64,000 nt of DNA from contig CAVYES010000005.1 of the NCBI GenBank assembly GCA_963767735.1, positions 1 to 64,000 on the forward strand. Reading direction: 5' to 3'. A program made the position numbers and the translations under genes. The notes beneath the pieces are model-generated. The model was given only the letters and a program-made list of their open reading frames with translations, did no database searches and was not told where the DNA came from. Shown here piece after piece: positions 21,727 to 39,218 of the stretch. The number at the start of each line of letters is the position of its first letter. Position 1 is the first letter of the stretch. Origin of the DNA: Candidatus Bathyarchaeota archaeon. GTDB taxonomy: Archaea > Thermoproteota > Bathyarchaeia > Bathyarchaeales > Bathycorpusculaceae.

Positions 21727-22106
21727 GCAGATATAGGATTTGTGTCTGGGTGTAAAAACGTTTTCCAACGGAAACTGCCCACCCCCAGAAAATGAGGGAC
21801 AATATCCTGTGAGGATAAACCAACGCAAAGCGCCCAAGCCAACAGCAATTTCTATCGAACCAACCTTAAGTGAAAGTCGCAATCGCCCAAACCAAAAGTC
21901 GCAACCCAAAATAAGATTCAAACCCTAAACCAAAAAAGCCAAAACTCAAAGAACCCCGTCTGAAAGTCGCAACTTAAAAATTTAAACCGCCACTTTTCAA
22001 AACTCCAATTTTGGAAAGATCCTTAAATCGGAGGTGGTTTCTTATTTTTAATGGTAACGTTTATAACGTCATTTTATATTTGCATAGGGCGCGAAGCTGA
22101 AGTAAA

Positions 22107-30551: not shown

Positions 30552-32010
30552 CTATAGATATTCGCGTCTTTTTCTCAAGGCTGCCGTAGCCAATCTTAAC
30601 TCGACAGGGTAACGAAAATACCTGTGTCTCCACCTGTATTTGGCAATTTTGTTTAACAAGCCGTACCCTAGTCTGTAAGAAAGTCGGCGCTCACCAACTC
30701 GTGTGCGAGGATAAAACGCGTAAATCGAAACGGTTGAAACGTCCTGAAGCTTATCGACATATTGCTTAGAATGCCATGGCGGCCTGAAATGAAAAACCTC
30801 AGCTTTCCCCCACTCTTCAAAAGATTGAGGAAGTTTAAATTCTGGACCCAACGAATCCAAGATGGGGCTGGGAAAAGGCGTGAACAAAAAGATCCCGTAG
30901 TGTTGGGTCTTCGGGTTAACTTCACATCCTGTCCATTAAGTCACATGTCTTCATGAGATCATCTTCGGTTTCCGTGGGAAGCCCACTTAGCCAAGACACA
31001 AACGGTTCAATAGAAGGAGCCCACTTTCTCAGGTTTTCTACAGAACTAATCATTTGCTCCGTCGTGATATCCTTATTTATGAGTGAAAGCAACCGTTCAG
31101 ATCCAGTTTCTCCTCCAAAATCAATCTCGGTACAACCTGATTTCGCCAGCAGCTCAATGAAACCCTGGTGGTATTCTGACATATAATCAAATCTGCAGTT
31201 CGCTCGCCAACTTACTTTGATTTTTCGATTTAATATTTCCTGACAAATGTCCATTACTCTTCTTTGATCAACGAAGAAATTATCGTCAATTGGATCAATA
31301 ATTCTGATGTGCGGAAATTTTTCAAGAACATATTCTATTTCATCAACGACTCGACGGGCACTTTTTCCACGCCAAGTCTGCCTGTTATAAACGATATTAT
31401 AACAAAATCCACACTTATGAGGACAACCCCTGCTCGTCTGAATATGAAACCGGCCCGACTTTAACGTAGGATATTTGTCCAAAGACAGCAACTCAAAAGG
31501 AAGCTCAATAGGAATCTCGTCCAAGTCCATTAGTTCACGGTTAGGTGTACTTCTGATTGTTCCAGCCGACTTGAAAGTAATCCCTTTGATCCCATCAAGT
31601 GGCTCGCCTGCCGAAAATTTGTCAGCCAACTCCAAAAGTGTTCGTTCTCCTTCGCCCCTCACTACAATGTCAACAAACTCGCTTGCCACAGTCTGTTCCG
31701 GCAAAAGAGTAGGATGCACCCCGCCCCACACAAGAGGAATCGAAGAATCTAAAATCCTAACCCTCCGCGCAAACTCTAGTCCATATCGTATTTGAGACCC
31801 ATGAATCGTGCTTATGCCGACAAAAAGCGGCTTTCCAATTTCAAAATCGGTAAAACTTTCTAATCGCATGTCTAGAATTTTAACTGAATACCCGCCTTTA
31901 ATCAGAAAACTCGCCAGATGCAACAAAGAAAGTGGAACCTGCGGGTTAGGAGAATTGTGCTTTCCTGGAAAGACTAATAACACTTCCAGTGTCTTGTCTT
32001 TTCTTAACAA
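30552..32010 (-). pseudogene. B12-binding radical SAM protein, split near 30922 by an apparent 2-nt deletion
   Basis: WGGVHPT and SRGCPHKCGFC; the tail (FTPFPSP...RYPVEL, 30552..30887) aligns with paralog 37587.. Confidence 0.8.
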
Positions 32011-32262
32011 AAGTCTCTCTTCAGTTCAGGCTTTTCTAAATGCAAAATCCAGTTGTGACTTCTTAAGCTTATGTGACTGCCGCATGACAGCAACAAAAAC
32101 TGAAATACGTTAAGTTTCACTCGGATTAGAAAAGCACTTCAATATATTATATTTATTTTTTGAAAGATTACTTTTGGCCATATACGAACTCCAAACCAAA
32201 AAGCAACAAAACAATGATCTGAAAGGAACTTTTAGCCATTCGACACAGCAAAAAGTAGGAAA

Positions 32263-32277
32263 GGTTAAAATTTAATC
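32263..32277 (+). repeat. Left target-site duplication (15 bp)
   Basis: GGTTAAAATTTAATC, identical to 37558-37572. Confidence 0.85.
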
Positions 32278-32296
32278 CCCAAACCCAAACCCAAAC
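32278..32296 (+). repeat. Left terminal inverted repeat (CCCAAA)3C
   Basis: CCCAAACCCAAACCCAAAC is the reverse complement of 37539-37557. Confidence 0.85.
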
Positions 32297-32488
32297 GACG
32301 ACGGAAACGACGAAAAAACCTGAAAAAAACGGCTAAACGATGAAAAAACTACGAAACGACGGTTTATTTTTATAATTATTGTTGTTTACACTATAATTTT
32401 TAATATTATTTACAATTTTATCTTAAATGTTGTGTAAAGTTGAATGTTAAAGATTAATTAAATTCAGTATTAACATTTTATAATTTAA

Positions 32489-32731
32489 TTATTGTTTGAC
32501 CTTCACAGAAGATAAAGCACCATAAACACTACAAGTAACACCAATCAACGAAAAAACAAGTCCAATTATAGCAACAATAGAATATTCAACTATTGTATTA
32601 TAAATACCAATCCAATAAGCAGTTTTAGGATAAGGGTCACCAAGCAACTGTAAATCATGAAACCCAATCATCAACATAACCAAACCTAACACCGTAAGAA
32701 CAATGCCAATAATAATGATTCCAATTTTCAT
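32489..32731 (-). CDS. Small two-TM membrane protein (element cargo)
   Basis: 80 aa with two hydrophobic helices. Confidence 0.55.
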   Translation of the reverse strand: MKIGIIIIGIVLTVLGLVMLMIGFHDLQLLGDPYPKTAYWIGIYNTIVEYSIVAIIGLVFSLIGVTCSVYGALSSVKVKQ

Positions 32732-32870
32732 TTTTTTACCATCTTAGGACATTTTTTTCAGCACTACATTACAATTATTAATAACGATAAAATCCAAATT
32801 AATATTTTATGAATATGAAATTAATATTAACTTAGATTCACTAATGATTACATTAAAAATTGGGAAAAGA

Positions 32871-33905
32871 TTAAATTGTTGGAAGTCTCGGAATCCAACT
32901 TGGTTTTTCATGCCTAAGATACTTCGCTAAAAGTAACGCTTCTTCACTAATTAATGTCTCAAACTCTTGTCTTTTCCCGACTCTGATTCTTGGTATTTCC
33001 ACATAAGAATTAAACAAACTATCTAATTCAACCATGAAACTTTTAGTTTCATCATCGTTAAGATATTCTCTTTTCCCAATTTTTCCACGTGACATTAACT
33101 CACTTTTTGTTATGAAATCCTTTTTGCTCAATTCCTTACAGAATCCGATAATAAAATCATCAATGATGTATCTGTAAATCTCCATGAAATCACATATTAA
33201 ACTTGGCTTACCGAATTGTTCACTATGCAAAAAACCAAGATAAGGCTCTAATTTCGCATTAACAAGTGCTTTATGAACTTTCCAGTTAAGCATCTCATAA
33301 CCTAAATTGAAAAGATTATTTATTCCATCATAAGCCTTGAAAGTTCTTCTACATTCAGGTCTTATCCTTTCAGGTATTAAATCAAACACTTGTTTAAAAT
33401 AAAATTCTGCACAATGAGATTCATAAGTGGAAATAATAACTCTAACTTTAAGTAAATTGTCACTATCAATATTCTTAATCCTTGAAATCATGGCAATATC
33501 AAACGGTTTTAAACTGTATTTGCTCAATACCTTATTTTGACCTTCTATTTTACTTAAAACAATTATTTTTGCAATCTCTAAAGCTCTACCATCTTTTAAC
33601 GCTTCATACTGTTGTATCCTTGTATCTACATGGTCATCATTATCTAAACTTCTAAGCATCGCAACAGGTCTCCCTTTTTGCGTAATAATCAAAACATCAA
33701 TATCCCAAAAACCTAAAGATGCTAAAGCACCTGTAGAAACACAATTACCACTTTTTAGTACAACTTCACCAATTTCTTTTTCAAATAATGGATAACGTTT
33801 AACATTTCCAGTTCTATCTTTAACTATAAAACAGCCTTTTTCCATGCCTAAATAACTGCCTTGTTTATCAAGCGTTATTTTCAGAGTTTTAGAGCCTTTA
33901 ACCAT
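32871..33905 (-). CDS. cas1: Stand-alone Cas1 endonuclease/integrase (casposase-like, no C-terminal HTH)
   Basis: N-terminal beta domain (GSYLGMEKG, VSTGAL, GRP), R..QY, catalytic E162 (YES), NLGY, PYLGFLH227 and SL.CDFME242. Confidence 0.93.
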   Translation of the reverse strand: MVKGSKTLKITLDKQGSYLGMEKGCFIVKDRTGNVKRYPLFEKEIGEVVLKSGNCVSTGALASLGFWDIDVLIITQKGRPVAMLRSLDNDDHVDTRIQQYEALKDGRALEIAKIIVLSKIEGQNKVLSKYSLKPFDIAMISRIKNIDSDNLLKVRVIISTYESHCAEFYFKQVFDLIPERIRPECRRTFKAYDGINNLFNLGYEMLNWKVHKALVNAKLEPYLGFLHSEQFGKPSLICDFMEIYRYIIDDFIIGFCKELSKKDFITKSELMSRGKIGKREYLNDDETKSFMVELDSLFNSYVEIPRIRVGKRQEFETLISEEALLLAKYLRHEKPSWIPRLPTI

Positions 33906-34016
33906 TTTTAAACCTTCATTTCAAACTATTAATAATTATTAATAATAATTAATTAATGTTAAGGTAAAAAATATAAACATTTCACTCATTATTAATAAGT
34001 TTTAGTGACTGTTAAC

Positions 34017-34151
34017 ATGACAAAAAAACTTATTTTAGATATTGATAATGAAACTTGGAAAGAGGTTTTAAAGTACAAAATTGATAACGATTTAAAGAAC
34101 AATAATGAAACAGTAATTTTACTGATAAAAAAAGCATTATCTCTAAAATAA
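34017..34151 (+). CDS. Small RHH-like regulator divergent from cas1 (44 aa, not in ORF track)
   Basis: MTKKLILDIDNETWKEVLKYKIDNDLKNNNETVILLIKKALSLK. Confidence 0.6.
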   Translation: MTKKLILDIDNETWKEVLKYKIDNDLKNNNETVILLIKKALSLK

Positions 34152-34658
34152 ACTTGAATCTTCACAAAATAATTATTAGAAAAAAAGTGGAGGAAAGTAA
34201 TTTAGATTTTACTCTAAAACTACTTTTTACCTATGTATTTGACTTTGATTATTAGTGCTAATATTCCCATGCCTATGAAACATAAAGGCAATAATCCCCA
34301 AATAGTTATTACCGTTGCGTTCCAACCGCATATACAAACTCTTTATGTAAAAGTTTTTTGTATCGGTAGCATAGAAAATAGCGAACCCTATGATTCTGCA
34401 TAATTATCTAAAAATTTAGGTAACTATTCAGCAGCAAGCACTAATATGACAAAATCAACCAATCCCCTCACGGTCGATAAGACCATGATTTAGGTCGATG
34501 ATATCTGTCATGTTTTTTGTGTAACCCTCCCTAAGTCAACTTAGGGCTTGATTAGATATAAAAGATTTGCTATATTTTTGGTGTTTGATTCAAAATAAAC
34601 TTTTAAATTACTTTTTAGATAAATTTTTACTTGTTTTTTATCTTTAATATAATTATAT

Positions 34659-34820
34659 TTATTCTTTTATAGGCTCAAGAATTAACGTAAATTTTTGTTT
34701 TCCATCTAAAACAGCTTTCAATTCTTCCAAATTAGCAAGATAACGTTCATGCTTAACCATTACAGTTACTTTTTTACTATCTTTAGTTAAACTCAAATAT
34801 CCACAATCTTTCCAATTCAT
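34659..34820 (-). CDS. Small hypothetical protein (53 aa, not in ORF track)
   Basis: MNWKDCGYLSLTKDSKKVTVMVKHERYLANLEELKAVLDGKQKFTLILEPIKE; ATGA overlap with the upstream ORF and GAGGTGA SD. Confidence 0.55.
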   Translation of the reverse strand: MNWKDCGYLSLTKDSKKVTVMVKHERYLANLEELKAVLDGKQKFTLILEPIKE

Positions 34821-35503
34821 TGGCATTCAATCACCTCACTAACAGCTTTTACATTAGAATCAACAGATTTCTTAACAGAATCCTTAAGCGAATTCTTAAC
34901 AATATTCAAAATAATTCTTCTTGTTTCAAGTAATTCTTTTATTTGGTTGTTTTGACTACCATAACGAAAAACAATTTTGGGCGAAGGTTTATCAATTTTA
35001 GGGCTAAACCTTAATGTTGAGCTTTCCTTAATACACTGCATTAAAACCCATTTTTGTAAATCTATACTACTGCTTTCAAGTGCAATCCAATTTATTATAT
35101 GAACATTTTTAGTCCAGCTAACAGGTCTATCAAAAGCAACAAGATAATTCTTTTCAAAATATCTGTAACTAACTTTTCCTTTTTTCCCTTTTTCTTTAGC
35201 AATATGTTCTTTTCTACTTGATTCAAAAATAATAAATCCATTCAGATTAAACCAATTTAATGCTCGAAAAGCATAATATCTCACTTTATCAAGAGGCATC
35301 TTATCAAAATCAATTTGAACTATATTTTTACTCCAATTCCCAATAATTACAGATAAAATATCATCAGAAAAATCATTACCTAAAACACGTTTTGCAACTT
35401 GATATAATTCTTTTTCAGTGCCGAACGTTTGAATCCTTTTCTGTTTGCCATTAACAGAACCGTAAAAAGCAACTTGAACTTTTAGCTGTTTATTCTCGGT
35501 CGT
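34817..35503 (-). CDS. Putative AEP/primase-like protein; frame open 68 codons beyond the 35299 ATG
   Basis: The extension contains VQIDFD (hDxD); downstream motifs ESS...NYLVAFD and STLRFSPK; fold assignment is inference. Confidence 0.45.
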   Translation of the reverse strand, partial: TTENKQLKVQVAFYGSVNGKQKRIQTFGTEKELYQVAKRVLGNDFSDDILSVIIGNWSKNIVQIDFDKMPLDKVRYYAFRALNWFNLNGFIIFESSRKEHIAKEKGKKGKVSYRYFEKNYLVAFDRPVSWTKNVHIINWIALESSSIDLQKWVLMQCIKESSTLRFSPKIDKPSPKIVFRYGSQNNQIKELLETRRIILNIVKNSLKDSVKKSVDSNVKAVSEVIECQ

Positions 35504-35949
35504 TTATCCCACTCTTCTTTTGAAAGATATTTATCTGGATTAGAAAGTAACTTGCTTGCATCTATAGTTAAAAATTGAGATTTAGGTGAATAACCGCTTT
35601 TTGTTTTACCAAAATCAAATATTTTTTCTCTTATTACTTTATGTAAAGTTTTACCATCTATTGAAAATATATTAATTCTACTCGCATGACCGTTAACTAA
35701 TCCGCTAAATGAAACTACTTTTTCTCTCGGATGATAATATCTTCTATATTTTTTAGGTGTATATTTACTAACATTGGCTTGTGCAGGTCTATTTCTAAAT
35801 TCTCGTGTATAGTTAAGTATTATTTGTCTTCTTAATCCAATATGTTCGCTTCTAAGCTCTTTTTGAATCTGATTAGCACTATAACCTCTTGCATTAAGCT
35901 CTCTTATTCTATTAACTTGTTTAGATGAAACTCCAGATTTACGACTCAA
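35482..35949 (-). CDS. Basic HTH-like hypothetical protein
   Basis: IRELNARGYSANQIQKEL resembles an HTH; C-terminal domain is similar to the hidden N-terminus of the next ORF. Confidence 0.6.
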   Translation of the reverse strand: MSRKSGVSSKQVNRIRELNARGYSANQIQKELRSEHIGLRRQIILNYTREFRNRPAQANVSKYTPKKYRRYYHPREKVVSFSGLVNGHASRINIFSIDGKTLHKVIREKIFDFGKTKSGYSPKSQFLTIDASKLLSNPDKYLSKEEWDKRPRINS

Positions 35950-36374
35950 AAAGTTTCACCTTCTAAATTTAACCTTTTTTTCTCTTCTTCCGTTAATGGA
36001 GCTTTACGCTCAGATTCATCTAATCTTAACTGTAACTTTTTTTCTCTATCTATTTTATTCTCATAATTCTTAATGATTTTATGAAGTTGTGATAAATAAT
36101 AAGGAAAACTTTTAGATATTGTTATAATTTGAGTTTTATAATCAACAGTTATTAAACCTAAATTTTCAACATGACTTATTATTTCTGTTGTTTGGTTTTG
36201 GTGAGGAGCTTTAGGCATACCGCCCTCAGTGATAAACGCATTGTTAAAATCATTTATAGTTTTATTTTTACATGATTTAAGCATAAAATCCATAATTTTT
36301 AGGTTTTTAAGAAGTTTTTGTTTTGCCCAATATTCTTCTTGACTTTCAATCGGTTTTATACTTATATCTGTCAT
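35946..36374 (-). CDS. Hypothetical protein, possible winged helix
   Basis: ISHVENLGLITVD; overlapping start/stop with neighbours. Confidence 0.55.
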   Translation of the reverse strand: MTDISIKPIESQEEYWAKQKLLKNLKIMDFMLKSCKNKTINDFNNAFITEGGMPKAPHQNQTTEIISHVENLGLITVDYKTQIITISKSFPYYLSQLHKIIKNYENKIDREKKLQLRLDESERKAPLTEEEKKRLNLEGETF

Positions 36375-36526
36375 TTATACCGCTTAACCTTCTTTTTCCA
36401 GTTAAAATGAAATTCTCTTAAACTTGTTTTTTTATGTGAAGCTCTGGGTAAAAGTACACGTTCTTTCCAAAATTCTATTTTTACATCTAAAACGTTACCA
36501 TGACAGTCAACATGTAGTTTAGACAT
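36371..36526 (-). CDS. Small basic hypothetical protein (51 aa, not in ORF track)
   Basis: MSKLHVDCHGNVLDVKIEFWKERVLLPRASHKKTSLREFHFNWKKKVKRYK; TAATG and ATGA overlaps on either side. Confidence 0.55.
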   Translation of the reverse strand: MSKLHVDCHGNVLDVKIEFWKERVLLPRASHKKTSLREFHFNWKKKVKRYK

Positions 36527-36945
36527 TATTTTTCACCTTTAGAGCTTTCAGGGCTTTTTTTTATCTGATTAATCCAATTAGTTTTTAATTTTTCATTTTT
36601 CAACATACTTATTTTTTCAATTAATTCTGAATCTGATAATTTTTCATAATGATTTGACTTAATAAAATCAGTTAAATCTAAAGTAAAATCTTGCTCTTTT
36701 TCTATTTTCGGTTGTATTTGCGGTTTTTCTTCTTTAACTAAATTATCTGTAATTCCATTTTTTCTTTCGAATTTCAACATTTCTTTTGCAGTATTTAGAT
36801 AATCTACTCTTGTATCTTGGCAGAAACACATAGCAAGTTCAGTTAATACATCATTTTCAGATTCTCCATCTTTTAATTTTTTCATTACGGCTCTTATATT
36901 TACATCTCTTATTGTTGAGCCTGACCTTTTCTTAAATTCACTCAA
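36526..36945 (-). CDS. Hypothetical protein (element cargo)
   Basis: 139-aa ORF in the coupled operon. Confidence 0.55.
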   Translation of the reverse strand: MSEFKKRSGSTIRDVNIRAVMKKLKDGESENDVLTELAMCFCQDTRVDYLNTAKEMLKFERKNGITDNLVKEEKPQIQPKIEKEQDFTLDLTDFIKSNHYEKLSDSELIEKISMLKNEKLKTNWINQIKKSPESSKGEK

Positions 36946-36948
36946 AAT

Positions 36949-37131
36949 TTAAACCTCTTCTCTAATTTCTTTTTGACCTATATTTTGACTTGTATTTTTT
37001 TCTGTAATTGTAAAAGTATTTCCACAATTTCTACATCTAAAATTATTAAAATAAAATCTAAAATATGTTTGAGTTGAATTGAATTTTGGACATCTGTGAT
37101 TTTTTACTTTTGTTTTTTGCATAGACATCAA
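36949..37131 (-). CDS. Small zinc-ribbon-like protein
   Basis: CPKF...FRCRNCGNTF; the first CxxC is degenerate. Confidence 0.5.
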   Translation of the reverse strand: MMSMQKTKVKNHRCPKFNSTQTYFRFYFNNFRCRNCGNTFTITEKNTSQNIGQKEIREEV

Positions 37132-37320
37132 ACAAACAGTATGTTTGTATCAAATTTAAGTTCTTCGATTTAGTTTTTTATCAATTTTGAGTTAATAATC
37201 CAACCCATATAGCTTGAATGGATTAATAAATTTCTACCTCAAAAACGTTTCAAAATTTACAATATATTTAGGGCTAACTCAAACTTCAGAGCTAACTCCT
37301 AACTATTCTTTATTCAGCGA

Positions 37321-37460
37321 GCTAACTAACGAACGAGCGAGCTAACTAACGAACGAGCGAGCTAACTAACGAACGAGCGAGCTAACTAACGAACGAGCGA
37401 GCTAACTAACGAACGAGCGAGCTAACTAACGAACGAGCGAGCTAACTAACGAACGAGCGA
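37321..37460 (+). repeat. Seven perfect tandem copies of a 20-bp unit (no spacers)
   Basis: (GCTAACTAACGAACGAGCGA)7, with degenerate GCTAACT copies at ~37273 and ~37291. Confidence 0.95.
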
Positions 37461-37538
37461 GCGAGCGAATGCGTGGGAGAGAGGGATAAGGAGAGCTTGA
37501 GTTTGGGTTTGTGAGTAGGCGTAGGCGTGTGTGAGGAA

Positions 37539-37557
37539 GTTTGGGTTTGGGTTTGGG
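37539..37557 (+). repeat. Right terminal inverted repeat G(TTTGGG)3
   Basis: GTTTGGGTTTGGGTTTGGG. Confidence 0.85.
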
Positions 37558-37572
37558 GGTTAAAATTTAATC
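37558..37572 (+). repeat. Right target-site duplication (15 bp)
   Basis: GGTTAAAATTTAATC. Confidence 0.85.
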
Positions 37573-37586
37573 CTAATTAATTAGTA

Positions 37587-39218
37587 GTGAGGGTCTTTTT
37601 AGGAATGTTCAGTTCCCAGACAGGCATATCACATTTCTGCAACATATATTCAAGCAATAACAAGAAAGACGTTTTGCTTGTTTTCCCAGGAAAGTTCAAA
37701 GCGCCTGACCCGCTGTTTCCTCTTTCGCTTTTGTATTTAGCCGCTTCACTGCAGGAAGAAGGTTTTACGGTTCGCGTTCTTGATATGAGAATTGAAGATT
37801 ATCGCCACTTTGAAATTGGCAACCCCCTATTTGTGGGCATAAGCTGTATTACGGGTTTACAAATCAATTATGCCTTAGAATTTGCCCGTTATGTCAGAAT
37901 ACACGCTTCTTCGTCGCCCATTGTTTGGGGAGGAGTTCATCCGACATTGTTGCCTGAGCAAACAGCAAGCAATGACTATGTTGATATCGTTGTCCGAGGG
38001 GGAGGAGAATTGATAATCAAAGATATAGCAAACGCGCTTGCGTTAAATGAATCGTTAGATACTGTTGCTGGAATAACTTATAATTTAAACGGCTCAATCA
38101 AAAATAACCCAGATGGTAACATAAAAGATTTAGATGATCAACCAATAGCTTTGCCCTATGACCTGCTCCAAATGGATAAGTACCCATCGGTAAAATCAGG
38201 CCGGTTCCATATACAAACAAGCCGAGGATGCCCTCACAGATGTGGTTTCTGCTACAACATATATTTTAACAAGAACAAATGGAGAGCCAAAAGCTCCAAA
38301 CGCGTGGTCGACGAAATTGAGTACATATTGAAAAAATTTCCCCACGTTAAAATAATAGATCCAATGGATGATAACTTTTTTGTTGACAAAAAACGTGTTG
38401 AAGAAATATGCCGAGAAATTTTAGGTCGCAAACTTGTAATTCAATGGCGCGCTAATTGCCGATTCGATTACCTATCTACTTATGATAAAGATTTTCTAGA
38501 GCTTTTAGAGAAAGCTGGATGTGTTGAGTTGAATTTTGGGGGTGAGTCAGGTTCAGAGCGTTTGCAACAGCTTATATGCAAAGACGTTACAGCAAATCAA
38601 ATGTTGCAATCGGTTGCGAATCTCCGTCGCTGGGCACCTTCCATTGAGCCCTATGTCACATGGATGATTGGTCTCCCAGGCGAAACTGACGACGATTTGA
38701 ATCAAACTTTTGATTTAATGGACAAGATGTGTGAAGTAAATCCTAAGACGCAGCATTTAGAAATATTTGTTTACACTCCATTTCCAAGTCCATTTATGAA
38801 TTTTTTGCCAGCGAAGTATAAACCACCTCAATCGCTTGAAGAATGGGGCAGCATCAATGTCTTTCATTTCGATCCACCTTGGCATAGCAAAAAGCAAGTG
38901 GAAAAGTTGCATTCGATTTCAGCTGTTATACGTTATGGGTTTTACCCTCAATCAAGAATAAAAGAACGGGATGTCACTTACAAAATAGCTCATGACGTTA
39001 TGAATCGTATTGCGAAGTACAGATGGAAACGCAGGTACTTCGGCTTCCCAATTGAACTAAAAATCGCTGATTCCTTATCTATGAAATTCAAGCTTTTTTC
39101 CTATATGCGGTTTAAGCTACGCGCTGTAGTCTCTTCCTTCAGGCTTAGAGCTTGGCTGTTTTCCAGCTTCAGGAATCTGCGGCAACGGAACCGGCGGCGG
39201 AATATTCAATATTCTTGA
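37587..39218 (+). CDS. B12-binding radical SAM protein; C-terminal ~40 aa read antisense into the neighbouring gene
   Basis: PLSLLYLAA, WGGVHPT, SRGCPHRCGFC and GGESGS; close paralog of 30552..32010. Confidence 0.85.
   Translation: MRVFLGMFSSQTGISHFCNIYSSNNKKDVLLVFPGKFKAPDPLFPLSLLYLAASLQEEGFTVRVLDMRIEDYRHFEIGNPLFVGISCITGLQINYALEFARYVRIHASSSPIVWGGVHPTLLPEQTASNDYVDIVVRGGGELIIKDIANALALNESLDTVAGITYNLNGSIKNNPDGNIKDLDDQPIALPYDLLQMDKYPSVKSGRFHIQTSRGCPHRCGFCYNIYFNKNKWRAKSSKRVVDEIEYILKKFPHVKIIDPMDDNFFVDKKRVEEICREILGRKLVIQWRANCRFDYLSTYDKDFLELLEKAGCVELNFGGESGSERLQQLICKDVTANQMLQSVANLRRWAPSIEPYVTWMIGLPGETDDDLNQTFDLMDKMCEVNPKTQHLEIFVYTPFPSPFMNFLPAKYKPPQSLEEWGSINVFHFDPPWHSKKQVEKLHSISAVIRYGFYPQSRIKERDVTYKIAHDVMNRIAKYRWKRRYFGFPIELKIADSLSMKFKLFSYMRFKLRAVVSSFRLRAWLFSSFRNLRQRNRRRNIQYS

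Follow-up and report, generated by a model that had tools for sequence, protein, structure and literature searches.

How does a transposon that encodes Cas1 but no PolB define its ends, and keep them, when those ends consist of a few copies of a telomere-like hexamer? The question is raised by 64,000 nucleotides of DNA from Candidatus Bathyarchaeota archaeon (contig CAVYES010000005.1, positions 1 to 64,000; this whole stretch is referred to below as the window), in which an AT-rich element of 5,280 bp occupies positions 32278-37557. Casposons are the proposed ancestors of CRISPR adaptation, and only four families of them have been characterised, all bearing PolB and with ends described as ordinary, unique terminal inverted repeats. 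The ends of the lineage described here bear on how the ancestors of CRISPR moved. A sequence-only reading of the window had drawn attention to the hexamers and had proposed that they serve as multimeric binding sites for Cas1, as synthesised or protected ends of a linear intermediate, or as tracts that fold into a quadruplex. From the comparisons presented below we favour, with a confidence only a little better than even, the interpretation that the hexamers would be the complete terminal inverted repeats of a PolB-less, casposon-like Cas1 transposon of 5.28 kb, recognised by the integrase and drifting in copy number.

The termini themselves are unambiguous. Direct reading, Tandem Repeats Finder (TRF; period 6, 3.2 copies and 100% matches on both arms) and an inverted-repeat finder all confirm the hexamer structure that had been described, and the two arms are exact reverse complements over 19 bp. 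They are flanked by a direct repeat, which the sequence-only reading did not mention and which is a target-site duplication of 15 bp.

32278-32296, plus strand: left terminal inverted repeat, (CCCAAA)3C (direct reading, inverted-repeat finder, TRF, tract count)
37539-37557, plus strand: right terminal inverted repeat, G(TTTGGG)3 (same four lines of evidence)
32263-32277, no strand: left copy of the 15-bp target-site duplication, GGTTAAAATTTAATC, a direct copy of 37558-37572
37558-37572, no strand: right copy of the 15-bp target-site duplication, ending 14 nt ahead of the radical-SAM GTG at 37587

As an exact direct repeat, GGTTAAAATTTAATCC, the flank extends over 16 bp (32263-32278 and 37558-37573); its length is 15 bp when the arms are counted as symmetric and 16 bp if C32278 is included. 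The inverted-repeat finder pairs 32265-32296 with 37539-37570, a stretch of 32 nt that takes in the flank, because the flank is itself a near-palindrome. Its AAAATTT asymmetry nevertheless establishes that the two flank copies are direct rather than inverted. Beyond the hexamers the two arms agree at only 7 of 15 nt, and therefore the repeats are the whole of the terminal inverted repeat of this element. If one mismatch is allowed, the window contains six matches to (CCCAAA)2, compared with 0.57 expected, and none of 100 shuffles reached this number; the arms account for four of the matches and the subterminal region for one (37502-37513), while the sixth is at 21886, away from the ends. The G+C content is 23-30% inside the element and 38-45% outside. 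Both ends are joined to host DNA, and the element sits between two divergent host genes for B12-binding radical-SAM proteins.

All the sizeable open reading frames (ORFs) of the element are on the minus strand, and one of them is cas1. The earlier attribution of these ends to a cas1 element is supported.

32871-33905, minus strand: cas1, 344 aa, predicted integrase, without a C-terminal helix-turn-helix (HTH) extension (PF01867, TIGR00287)

The protein matches PF01867 (E 1.9e-45, residues 12-281) and TIGR00287 (E 9.7e-47, residues 10-335), and no Cas subtype model matches it at that model's cut-off. E162, H227, D239 and E242 are invariant across 38 aligned relatives, with a spacing that resembles that of E141, H208, D218 and D221, the catalytic residues of E. 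coli Cas1 (PMC4046053). Domain scans of the element's ORFs found no PolB, Cas2, Cas4, reverse transcriptase or other recombinase, in agreement with the earlier statement that the element does without PolB. Inverted ends, a 15-bp duplication, a foreign base composition and Cas1 as the sole candidate integrase make this element a casposon, minus the polymerase. It has the catalytic tetrad, the terminal inverted repeats, the 14-15-bp duplication and the lack of any link to cas2 or CRISPR that characterise casposons; the PolB that was used in 2014 to define the superfamily is missing.

The Cas1 of the window element is matched by 1,887 database proteins at E <= 1e-3. The best 120 of these are 62-99% identical to it and 332-368 aa long, and those that are named come from Bathyarchaeota. 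A single scan of species-representative genomes yielded 79 loci, with as many as four from one genome. By title, 77 of them are from Bathyarchaeota or Bathyarchaeia; of the other two, one is labelled Levybacteria and the other Methanophagales. Elements of this lineage are numerous in Bathyarchaeia, where a genome has several of them. Elements were delimited by flanking direct repeats with inverted sequence just inside them, supplemented by a motif-based search. This gave 31 elements, or 32 with that of the window, ranging from 2.8 to 12.6 kb. Pairs called by the finder but judged spurious or doubtful were dropped (the second pairs of L004, L007, L008, L035, L049 and L062, and the pairs of L055 and L073), the 12.5-kb pair of L014 was replaced by another, and L015, with a doubtful 13.5-kb CCTT pair, was used in the Cas1 tree only.

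Every one of the 32 elements ends in a short two-letter tandem repeat. The unit is CCCAAA in 12 of them, CT in 9 (as CTTTCTCTCTC...), CTT in 3, CCCAA, CCAA and CA in 2 each, and CAA and CTTTTTCCCC in 1 each. Comparison of homologous elements, which the sequence-only reading had proposed as a check, thus finds ends that are repetitive throughout and that vary in both unit and copy number. The other check, whether such tracts are common background, also comes out in favour of that reading, for they are not genomic background. Two or more tandem units of CCCAAA or TTTGGG are found in 32 of the 79 loci, and 48 of the 54 such tracts in 1.28 Mb (loci plus window) directly abut an AT-rich near-palindrome like the flank in the window. 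The number of perfect units in these 48 is 2 (32 tracts), 3 (11), 4 (2), 5 (2) or 6 (1). What the different units have in common is a strand asymmetry. Over the first 20 nt of the 5' strand at the 64 ends, C makes up 44% and G 3%, whereas the interior values are 18% and 20%; G is missing from this stretch at 37 of the 64 ends and occurs at most once at 53. The skew persists, more weakly, to 100 nt (C 30%, G 12%). The telomere-like asymmetry is therefore a property of the whole family rather than of a single element, and since the 5' strand is C-rich and G-poor throughout, each 3' end is G-rich and C-poor.

The lengths of the tracts are less constant than their composition. In 21 of the 32 elements the two arms carry tracts of unequal length. 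The arms are identical right after the tract (at least 12 of 15 nt) in 17 elements, and 7 of these 17 differ in tract length, 5 of them by whole units: one CCCAAA in L003, one CTT in L063, two CT in L074, two CTT in L077 and one CT in L052. Other unequal arms have 3 and 5 units (L007) or 5 and 6 (L062), and irregular tracts such as CCAAACCAACCAAACCAAAA and CCCCAAACCCCAAACCCAA exist. In every delimited element the boundary between flanking repeat and arm coincides with the start of the C-run.

It was of interest to compare these termini with the phylogeny of the integrase. A maximum-likelihood tree of 33 Cas1 sequences separates a C/T-type clade of 12 rows (support 95/80) from a C/A-type clade of 20 rows (100/99), and the sole exception to this split is the doubtful L015 (called CCTT), which pairs with L016. 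When the terminus labels are mapped on the tree they require 13 changes, against a mean of 18.9 for shuffled labels, and a number as low was obtained in none of 200 shuffles. Within the C/A clade, L008 (CCCAAA) is sister to L017 (CCCAA), and L001 (CCCAA) falls within a CCCAAA group. Thus the composition of the repeat follows the Cas1 clade and its unit length does not. A single genome, CAVQNT, holds CCCAAA (L007), CT (L038) and CTT (L063) elements together, all at one common target.

That target can be described from the flanking direct repeats. These are 12-19 nt long, with a mode of 15 nt (10 of 32); the lengths are upper bounds, because a G or C can be assigned to either repeat. In 28 of the 32 cases the flanks contain a core made of an A-run and a T-run, as in GATTAAATTTTAATC or GGGTAAAGTTTTATCC. 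Of the 64 outer flanks, 45 resemble the end of another element, compared with 18% of random positions, and in 16 elements this holds for both flanks. Junctions of the form end-core-end are found in L025, L016, L050, L019, L021, L022, L008 and L065. In the densest regions (L079 at 5.8-13.4 kb, L038, L047, L063 and L042) a 12-15-bp AT palindrome recurs every 0.3-5 kb, flanked by CCCAAA, CT, CA and CCTT ends, and L038, L047, L063 and L079 have mixed terminus types in one array. Such regions are "graveyards" or arrays in which Cas1 elements and fragments of them are mixed. The insertion in the window is solitary and lies in unique host DNA; within the 64 kb the exact 16-mer occurs only at the flanks of the element.

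In place of PolB these elements carry a gene that resembles those in the superfamily of archaeo-eukaryotic primases (AEP). It is present in 26 of the 32 elements; the six that lack it keep their repeats. Together with an adjacent HTH-like gene, it is common to 10 of the 12 CCCAAA-type elements, these being the two genes shared besides cas1.

34817-35512, minus strand: AEP-like gene (PF24387 in relatives, AlphaFold model, Foldseek, protein atlas)
35482-35949, minus strand: 155-aa protein with an HTH-like N terminus (HTH_7, E 0.05, weak), conserved beside the AEP-like gene

PF24387, named "AEP-like", matches 9 of 17 relatives, with a best E of 2.6e-4 and none at the curated cut-off, and 8 of the 30 nearest clusters in the protein atlas carry this family. 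An AlphaFold (AF2) model has a predicted local distance difference test score (pLDDT) of 92.3. When the model was compared by Foldseek with the Protein Data Bank (PDB), the best E was 5e-3, none being <= 1e-3, and TM-scores were 0.35-0.46, with 0.35-0.38 for the primases that came first; the top matches are mostly primases, among them herpes simplex virus (HSV) primase, AsfvPrimPol, human PrimPol and RepB'. Against the viral models of BFVD the likeness was clearer, with 6 matches at E <= 1e-3 (TM-scores 0.23-0.41), again mostly primases, including DNA primases of Pithovirus and a D5-like primase-helicase. In AEP proteins, motif I is DxD or DxE and motif II is sxH. Motif I is present in the window copy: D65 and D67 are invariant in 46 sequences, and the DxD lies on strand E61-66 of the model. 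At the position of motif II, relatives usually have YH, and the window copy and its closest relatives, a subclade, have YL, so that sxH is not found in the window copy. In the C/T-type elements the homologue is divergent: it has D-x-E, and an [AS]TLR.S.K..RP motif is shared; profile-profile comparison gave a probability of 73% (E 3.1e-5). The gene probably encodes a much reduced protein of the AEP superfamily.

The copy in the window is anomalous. Its frame comprises 228 codons (34820-35503), and the gene would start at a GTG (35512-35510) that is followed by GGA and then by TAA at codon 3 (35506-35504). Full-length relatives, 81-86% identical to this frame, start MG(Q/H/Y)TTENK, and the next canonical start in the window frame is past the DxD motif. 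Because of the stop at codon 3, in a frame that is otherwise intact, the window copy is probably disabled; cas1 is intact. As a whole, the comparisons define a lineage of PolB-less casposons that encode an AEP-like protein, with short tandem-repeat termini and a palindromic target on which arrays form.

How might such ends be used? According to the interpretation that we favour, and by analogy with the casposases that have been solved or assayed, Cas1 would attach the two 3'-OH ends, both G-rich, to the palindromic target at staggered positions some 15 bp from each other. What it reads would be a few nucleotides at the very terminus together with the composition of that strand. Repetition would present one terminal sequence in several registers, and the repeat would keep the 3' strand from pairing with itself. 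Slippage, whether in replication, in gap repair or when ends are filled in, would make the number of units drift. The AEP-like and HTH-like proteins would probably serve to replicate the excised or integrating element or to fill it in, and to bind subterminal repeats. The casposases that have been assayed are site-specific, produce 13-15-bp duplications, need only a few terminal nucleotides of the inverted repeat and prefer short 3' overhangs (PMC8464041), and the M. mazei casposase binds single-stranded ends in the manner of spacer overhangs (PMC6977970). The data fit an integrase, or a partner of it, that senses the composition of the end rather than a fixed lattice of units.

Several points weigh against this interpretation. 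No empty site was found for the window insertion: when the window was compared by blastn with the 79 loci the host flanks were unmatched, and the matches were to the element only, mainly to cas1, apart from one unrelated stretch of 188 nt. In 47 of the 79 loci, many of which are on short or truncated contigs, no element was delimited, and the family-wide statements rest on 32. Part of the association between Cas1 clade and terminus could be due to common descent instead of recognition. A strict reading of the sequence of the unit by Cas1 is unlikely, because close Cas1 relatives (L008 and L017, L016 and L015) use different units. Finally, slippage among two or three copies of a hexamer is usually slow, which leaves room for an active process.

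Such a process is the essence of the main rival explanation, that the element passes through a free linear duplex, in replication or transposition, in which the AEP-like enzyme primes within the G-rich repeat, realigns and so regenerates the 5' end, as a telomere is maintained. The repeats would then be ends that are made and buffered by synthesis, with a fluctuating number of units. This would explain why reiteration is conserved in every subfamily while the unit changes, and it would accommodate both the irregular tracts and the otherwise identical arms that differ by whole units. A primase-like gene in most of these elements, with viral primases among its fold matches, and the lack of PolB in the window and among 47 cargo ORFs of 11 elements point in the same direction, and in protein-primed genomes sliding-back and jumping-back do depend on terminal reiteration (PMC5175343). 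One contig, L067 (17,506 nt), even amounts to a single element with inverted ends, as it starts AACCAACC... and at least its last 70 nt are the reverse complement of its start. It could be a free linear form; however, a repeat-ended contig is equally to be expected from an assembly break, so that L067 is ambiguous, and among 21 whole short contigs none had a terminal direct overlap and L067 alone had inverted ends. The AEP assignment itself is weak, given that no Pfam cut-off is reached, that no PDB match by Foldseek has E <= 1e-3 and that the histidine of motif II is replaced. Moreover, the repeats are kept by the six elements without the gene and by the window element, whose copy has the stop at codon 3, and the constant phase of the junction fits precise cutting better than ragged synthesis. 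We consider maintenance of this kind unlikely. Somewhat more plausible, although still tentative, is a role for the integrated end as a leader, which together with the duplicated palindrome beside it would recruit the next insertion and so build arrays of elements with the 15-bp repeat between them, much as spacer insertion is directed by a CRISPR leader; this is compatible with both of the preceding explanations. It is supported by the end-like outer flanks, the end-core-end junctions and the mixed arrays. Known casposases need a leader beside the duplicated segment and insert in tandem (PMC8464041, PMC9939771). Nevertheless, a target that is rare and regenerated by each insertion would by itself give arrays, and in the window the exact motif is found only at the two flanks of a solitary insertion. 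The test of likeness to an end is loose, as its background of 18% indicates, and CA and CT ends serve equally as flanks, contrary to a specific leader.

The idea that the repeats are a phased array on which several Cas1 protomers, or the HTH protein, assemble is close to what the sequence-only reading had in mind when it spoke of multimeric Cas1-binding sites. The three equal units at both ends of the window element and the way in which composition follows the Cas1 clade are in its favour, and the tandem repeats of period 7-20 that 14 of the 32 elements, that of the window included, have no more than 150 bp from an end could bind accessory proteins. It is nonetheless a poor fit. Within one Cas1 family the unit varies from 2 to 6 nt and the copy number from 2 to about 7, close relatives differ, 32 of 48 tracts have just two units, and the arms of one element often have unequal numbers of units, which a fixed protein lattice would not tolerate; we judge such an array quite improbable. 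Action of the G-tracts through G-quadruplex folding is harder still to credit. The 3' strands do have GGG tracts, and three ends with 5-6 units have the canonical motif, which was sought as four runs of G3 within the final 60 nt of every 3' strand. However, these are 3 of 24 CCCAAA-type ends, the motif is present at 6 of the 64 ends overall and at neither end of the window element, and the CT, CTT and CA subfamilies, having no G runs, cannot form one. A general role for quadruplexes was rejected on these counts. A bolder possibility combines several of these ideas: the lineage could be a living intermediate between casposons and CRISPR, in which PolB has been swapped for a miniature primase-polymerase, the telomere-like, G-rich and C-free ends are maintained by priming and realignment on the terminal tandem repeat, and arrays of inserts grow by re-insertion into the 15-bp palindrome duplicated beside the element's own ends. 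We regard this as improbable. If it were true, the unit between inserts, consisting of a G-rich end, an AT-palindrome and a C-rich end, would have the size and symmetry of a CRISPR repeat.

Comparison with known systems sheds some light on what is distinctive here. Like casposon families 1-4 (of which those of A. boonei, M. mazei and Ca. N. koreensis have been assayed), the present elements have Cas1 as their sole candidate integrase, terminal inverted repeats, duplications of the size produced by casposases (13-15 bp), a strong target preference, tandem insertions and no CRISPR array or cas2. They differ in having an AEP-like gene where families 1-4 have PolB, in ending in two-letter tandem repeats of variable number rather than in the unique sequences of 25-602 nt described for those families (PMC4046053), and in using an AT-rich near-palindrome in arrays instead of the 3' end of a tRNA or protein gene. 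A further difference is that by profile score the window Cas1 is closer to CRISPR Cas1 (4n06, 7.9e-27) than to the M. mazei casposase (6opm, 1e-19) among its PDB matches. In CRISPR adaptation by Cas1-Cas2, as here, a palindrome-containing target is duplicated with each insertion and arrays grow by its re-use; in contrast, the present inserts are 2.8-12.6 kb long, carry genes and have ends of their own, and no Cas2 or Cas4 was found with them.

Telomere-type repeats at transposon ends have a precedent in the TBE elements of Oxytricha (Tc1/mariner), whose terminal inverted repeats contain the C/A repeat CA4C4A4C4 (PMC4724952). Those elements are eukaryotic, use a DDE transposase, duplicate 3 bp (ANT) and have a repeat that copies the telomere of the host, whereas archaea with circular chromosomes have no telomeres to copy. 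The protein-primed replicons (phi29, PRD1, adenovirus and Bam35) share with the present elements a terminal reiteration, which in their case lets the strand slide or jump back (PMC5175343), but they have a terminal protein and a protein-primed PolB, which is absent here, and the whole of their reiteration spans 2-6 nt. A likeness to telomerase-maintained telomeres is also limited, in that the element's ORFs have no reverse transcriptase domain, no Rfam family is found, and both ends are integrated.

Probably the closest relatives in the literature are the "family 5" casposases proposed in 2022 from hot-spring metagenomes, which are archaeal, are near subtype I-A Cas1 and have terminal inverted repeats in some contigs (PMC9755687). 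They resemble the present family in lacking a C-terminal HTH and, for the most part, PolB, and, as in the present sample, one member is from Levybacterales (compare L036) and one is accompanied by PolB (compare L029). Comparison by eye with Cas1_938, 1200, 1219 and 1269 of Table_3 reveals the shared strings YLGMEKGCF, LEPYLGF, GKPSLVCDFMELYRYLIDD and EEA.LLAKYLR. Because the shared strings are long, the window family probably belongs to the same Cas1 clade as "family 5". In the passages of that paper and the supplements that were covered, neither the sequence of a terminal inverted repeat nor a target-site duplication or target motif was found, and the same holds for tandem-repeat ends and for an AEP-like gene. 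Literature searches on casposons in connection with Bathyarchaeia, with lack of PolB or non-autonomy and with PrimPol or AEP proteins found no description of such elements. The lineage provides a system in which to ask how Cas1 reads ends, how a PolB-less element is copied and whether arrays precede CRISPR immunity, and the small size of some members (2.8-5.3 kb), combined with their simple ends, makes them candidates for a programmable insertion tool.

Among the relatives, PolB was absent from the 47 cargo ORFs of 11 elements and appeared once when 92 further neighbours of cas1 were included (139 ORFs scanned), at L029:11064-12965, where a family B DNA polymerase (PF00136, E 2.5e-30) directly follows a cas1 of this family; no convincing terminal inverted repeat was found within 21 kb at this locus, which could be a link to the classical PolB casposons. 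The 139 ORFs included neither a Cas2 nor a Cas4. With a crude finder no CRISPR array was detected within 10 kb of 80 cas1 genes (79 loci plus window), the sole exception being a 66-nt repeat in three copies in L015. The closest genomic relative, L002:10362-11873, matches Cas1 residues 1-279 only (84% identity in protein, 80% in DNA) and has a tyrosine-recombinase gene (PF00589) just downstream of cas1; this cas1 could be a disrupted copy. Among the varied cargo are genes with domains of defence type (Schlafen/AlbA_2, Shedu SduA_C, CAP12/Pycsar TIR, GmrSD and Fic), located at L003:6734-7894, L053:8230-9141, L036:4076-5176, L021:4218-5042, L029:6813-9827 and L039:11052-11456. They lie inside elements or beside cas1, four of the six being in loci without a delimited element, and the elements may carry defence genes about.

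Two other candidates for the target in the window were considered. A tRNA is ruled out by distance, as the only tRNA of the window is 14.5 kb from the element. In the right copy of the target, a TTAAAATTTAA box lies some 27 nt upstream of the radical-SAM GTG, a position that suggested an archaeal TATA box. TATA-like words upstream of 43 window ORFs are scattered from -17 to -59, and this idea, suggestive only, could not be substantiated and is not used as evidence. The insertion would cut the radical-SAM gene off from anything farther upstream.

The remaining features of the element comprise small genes and an ORF-poor stretch:

32489-32731, minus strand: hydrophobic small ORF, 80 aa (weak matches to domains of unknown function, below Pfam cut-offs)
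33906-34658, no strand: ORF-poor, AT-rich stretch of about 750 bp with no ORF longer than 57 aa (ORF list)
34659-34826, minus strand: 55-aa ORF, conserved at the DNA level in L050 (72% identity over 156 nt)
35946-36374, minus strand: 142-aa ORF, no relatives found among the loci
36526-36945, minus strand: 139-aa ORF, with relatives in the C/T-type elements L046, L045, L044 and L066
36949-37131, minus strand: 60-aa zinc-ribbon-like ORF (weak Zn_ribbon_8 match)

An RNA gene in the ORF-poor stretch was rejected: no Rfam family was found in 32000-37800, and 33906-34658 had no match at E <= 1. Small zinc-ribbon ORFs are also found near one end in L018 (7432-7746) and L062 (4998-5327). AEP primases often need a zinc-binding partner, and these ORFs may be part of a replication module.

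Three repeat features lie just inside the arms:

37469-37538, plus strand: right subterminal stretch, G-rich and C-poor, with a degenerate 6-nt period (repeat finder, autocorrelation)
32293-32361, plus strand: left subterminal cluster of four AAACGAYG motifs, T-poor and rich in A, C and G (motif count, autocorrelation)
37316-37462, plus strand: perfect 20-bp tandem repeat, AGCGAGCTAACTAACGAACG x 7.3 (100% identity), about 95 bp inside the right end

The sequence-only reading had described a periodicity on each side. That on the right is real, if degenerate: the self-match at lag 6 is 0.56 (z = 4.2 against 1000 shuffles), and a degenerate copy of the terminal repeat lies within it at 37494-37516, TRF having called no repeat over 37469-37538. 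On the left, the period of about 10 nt holds up only in part. Autocorrelation rises modestly at lags 8-11, where z is about 2.5, and at lag 19, where z is 3.6; the four AAACGAYG motifs are spaced by 12, 30 and 19 nt, and the window as a whole contains 8 of them, compared with 4.84 expected. The perfect AGCGAGCTAACTAACGAACG array has an iteron-like look, and a related repeat, CGAACGAGCTAA, is subterminal in L046.

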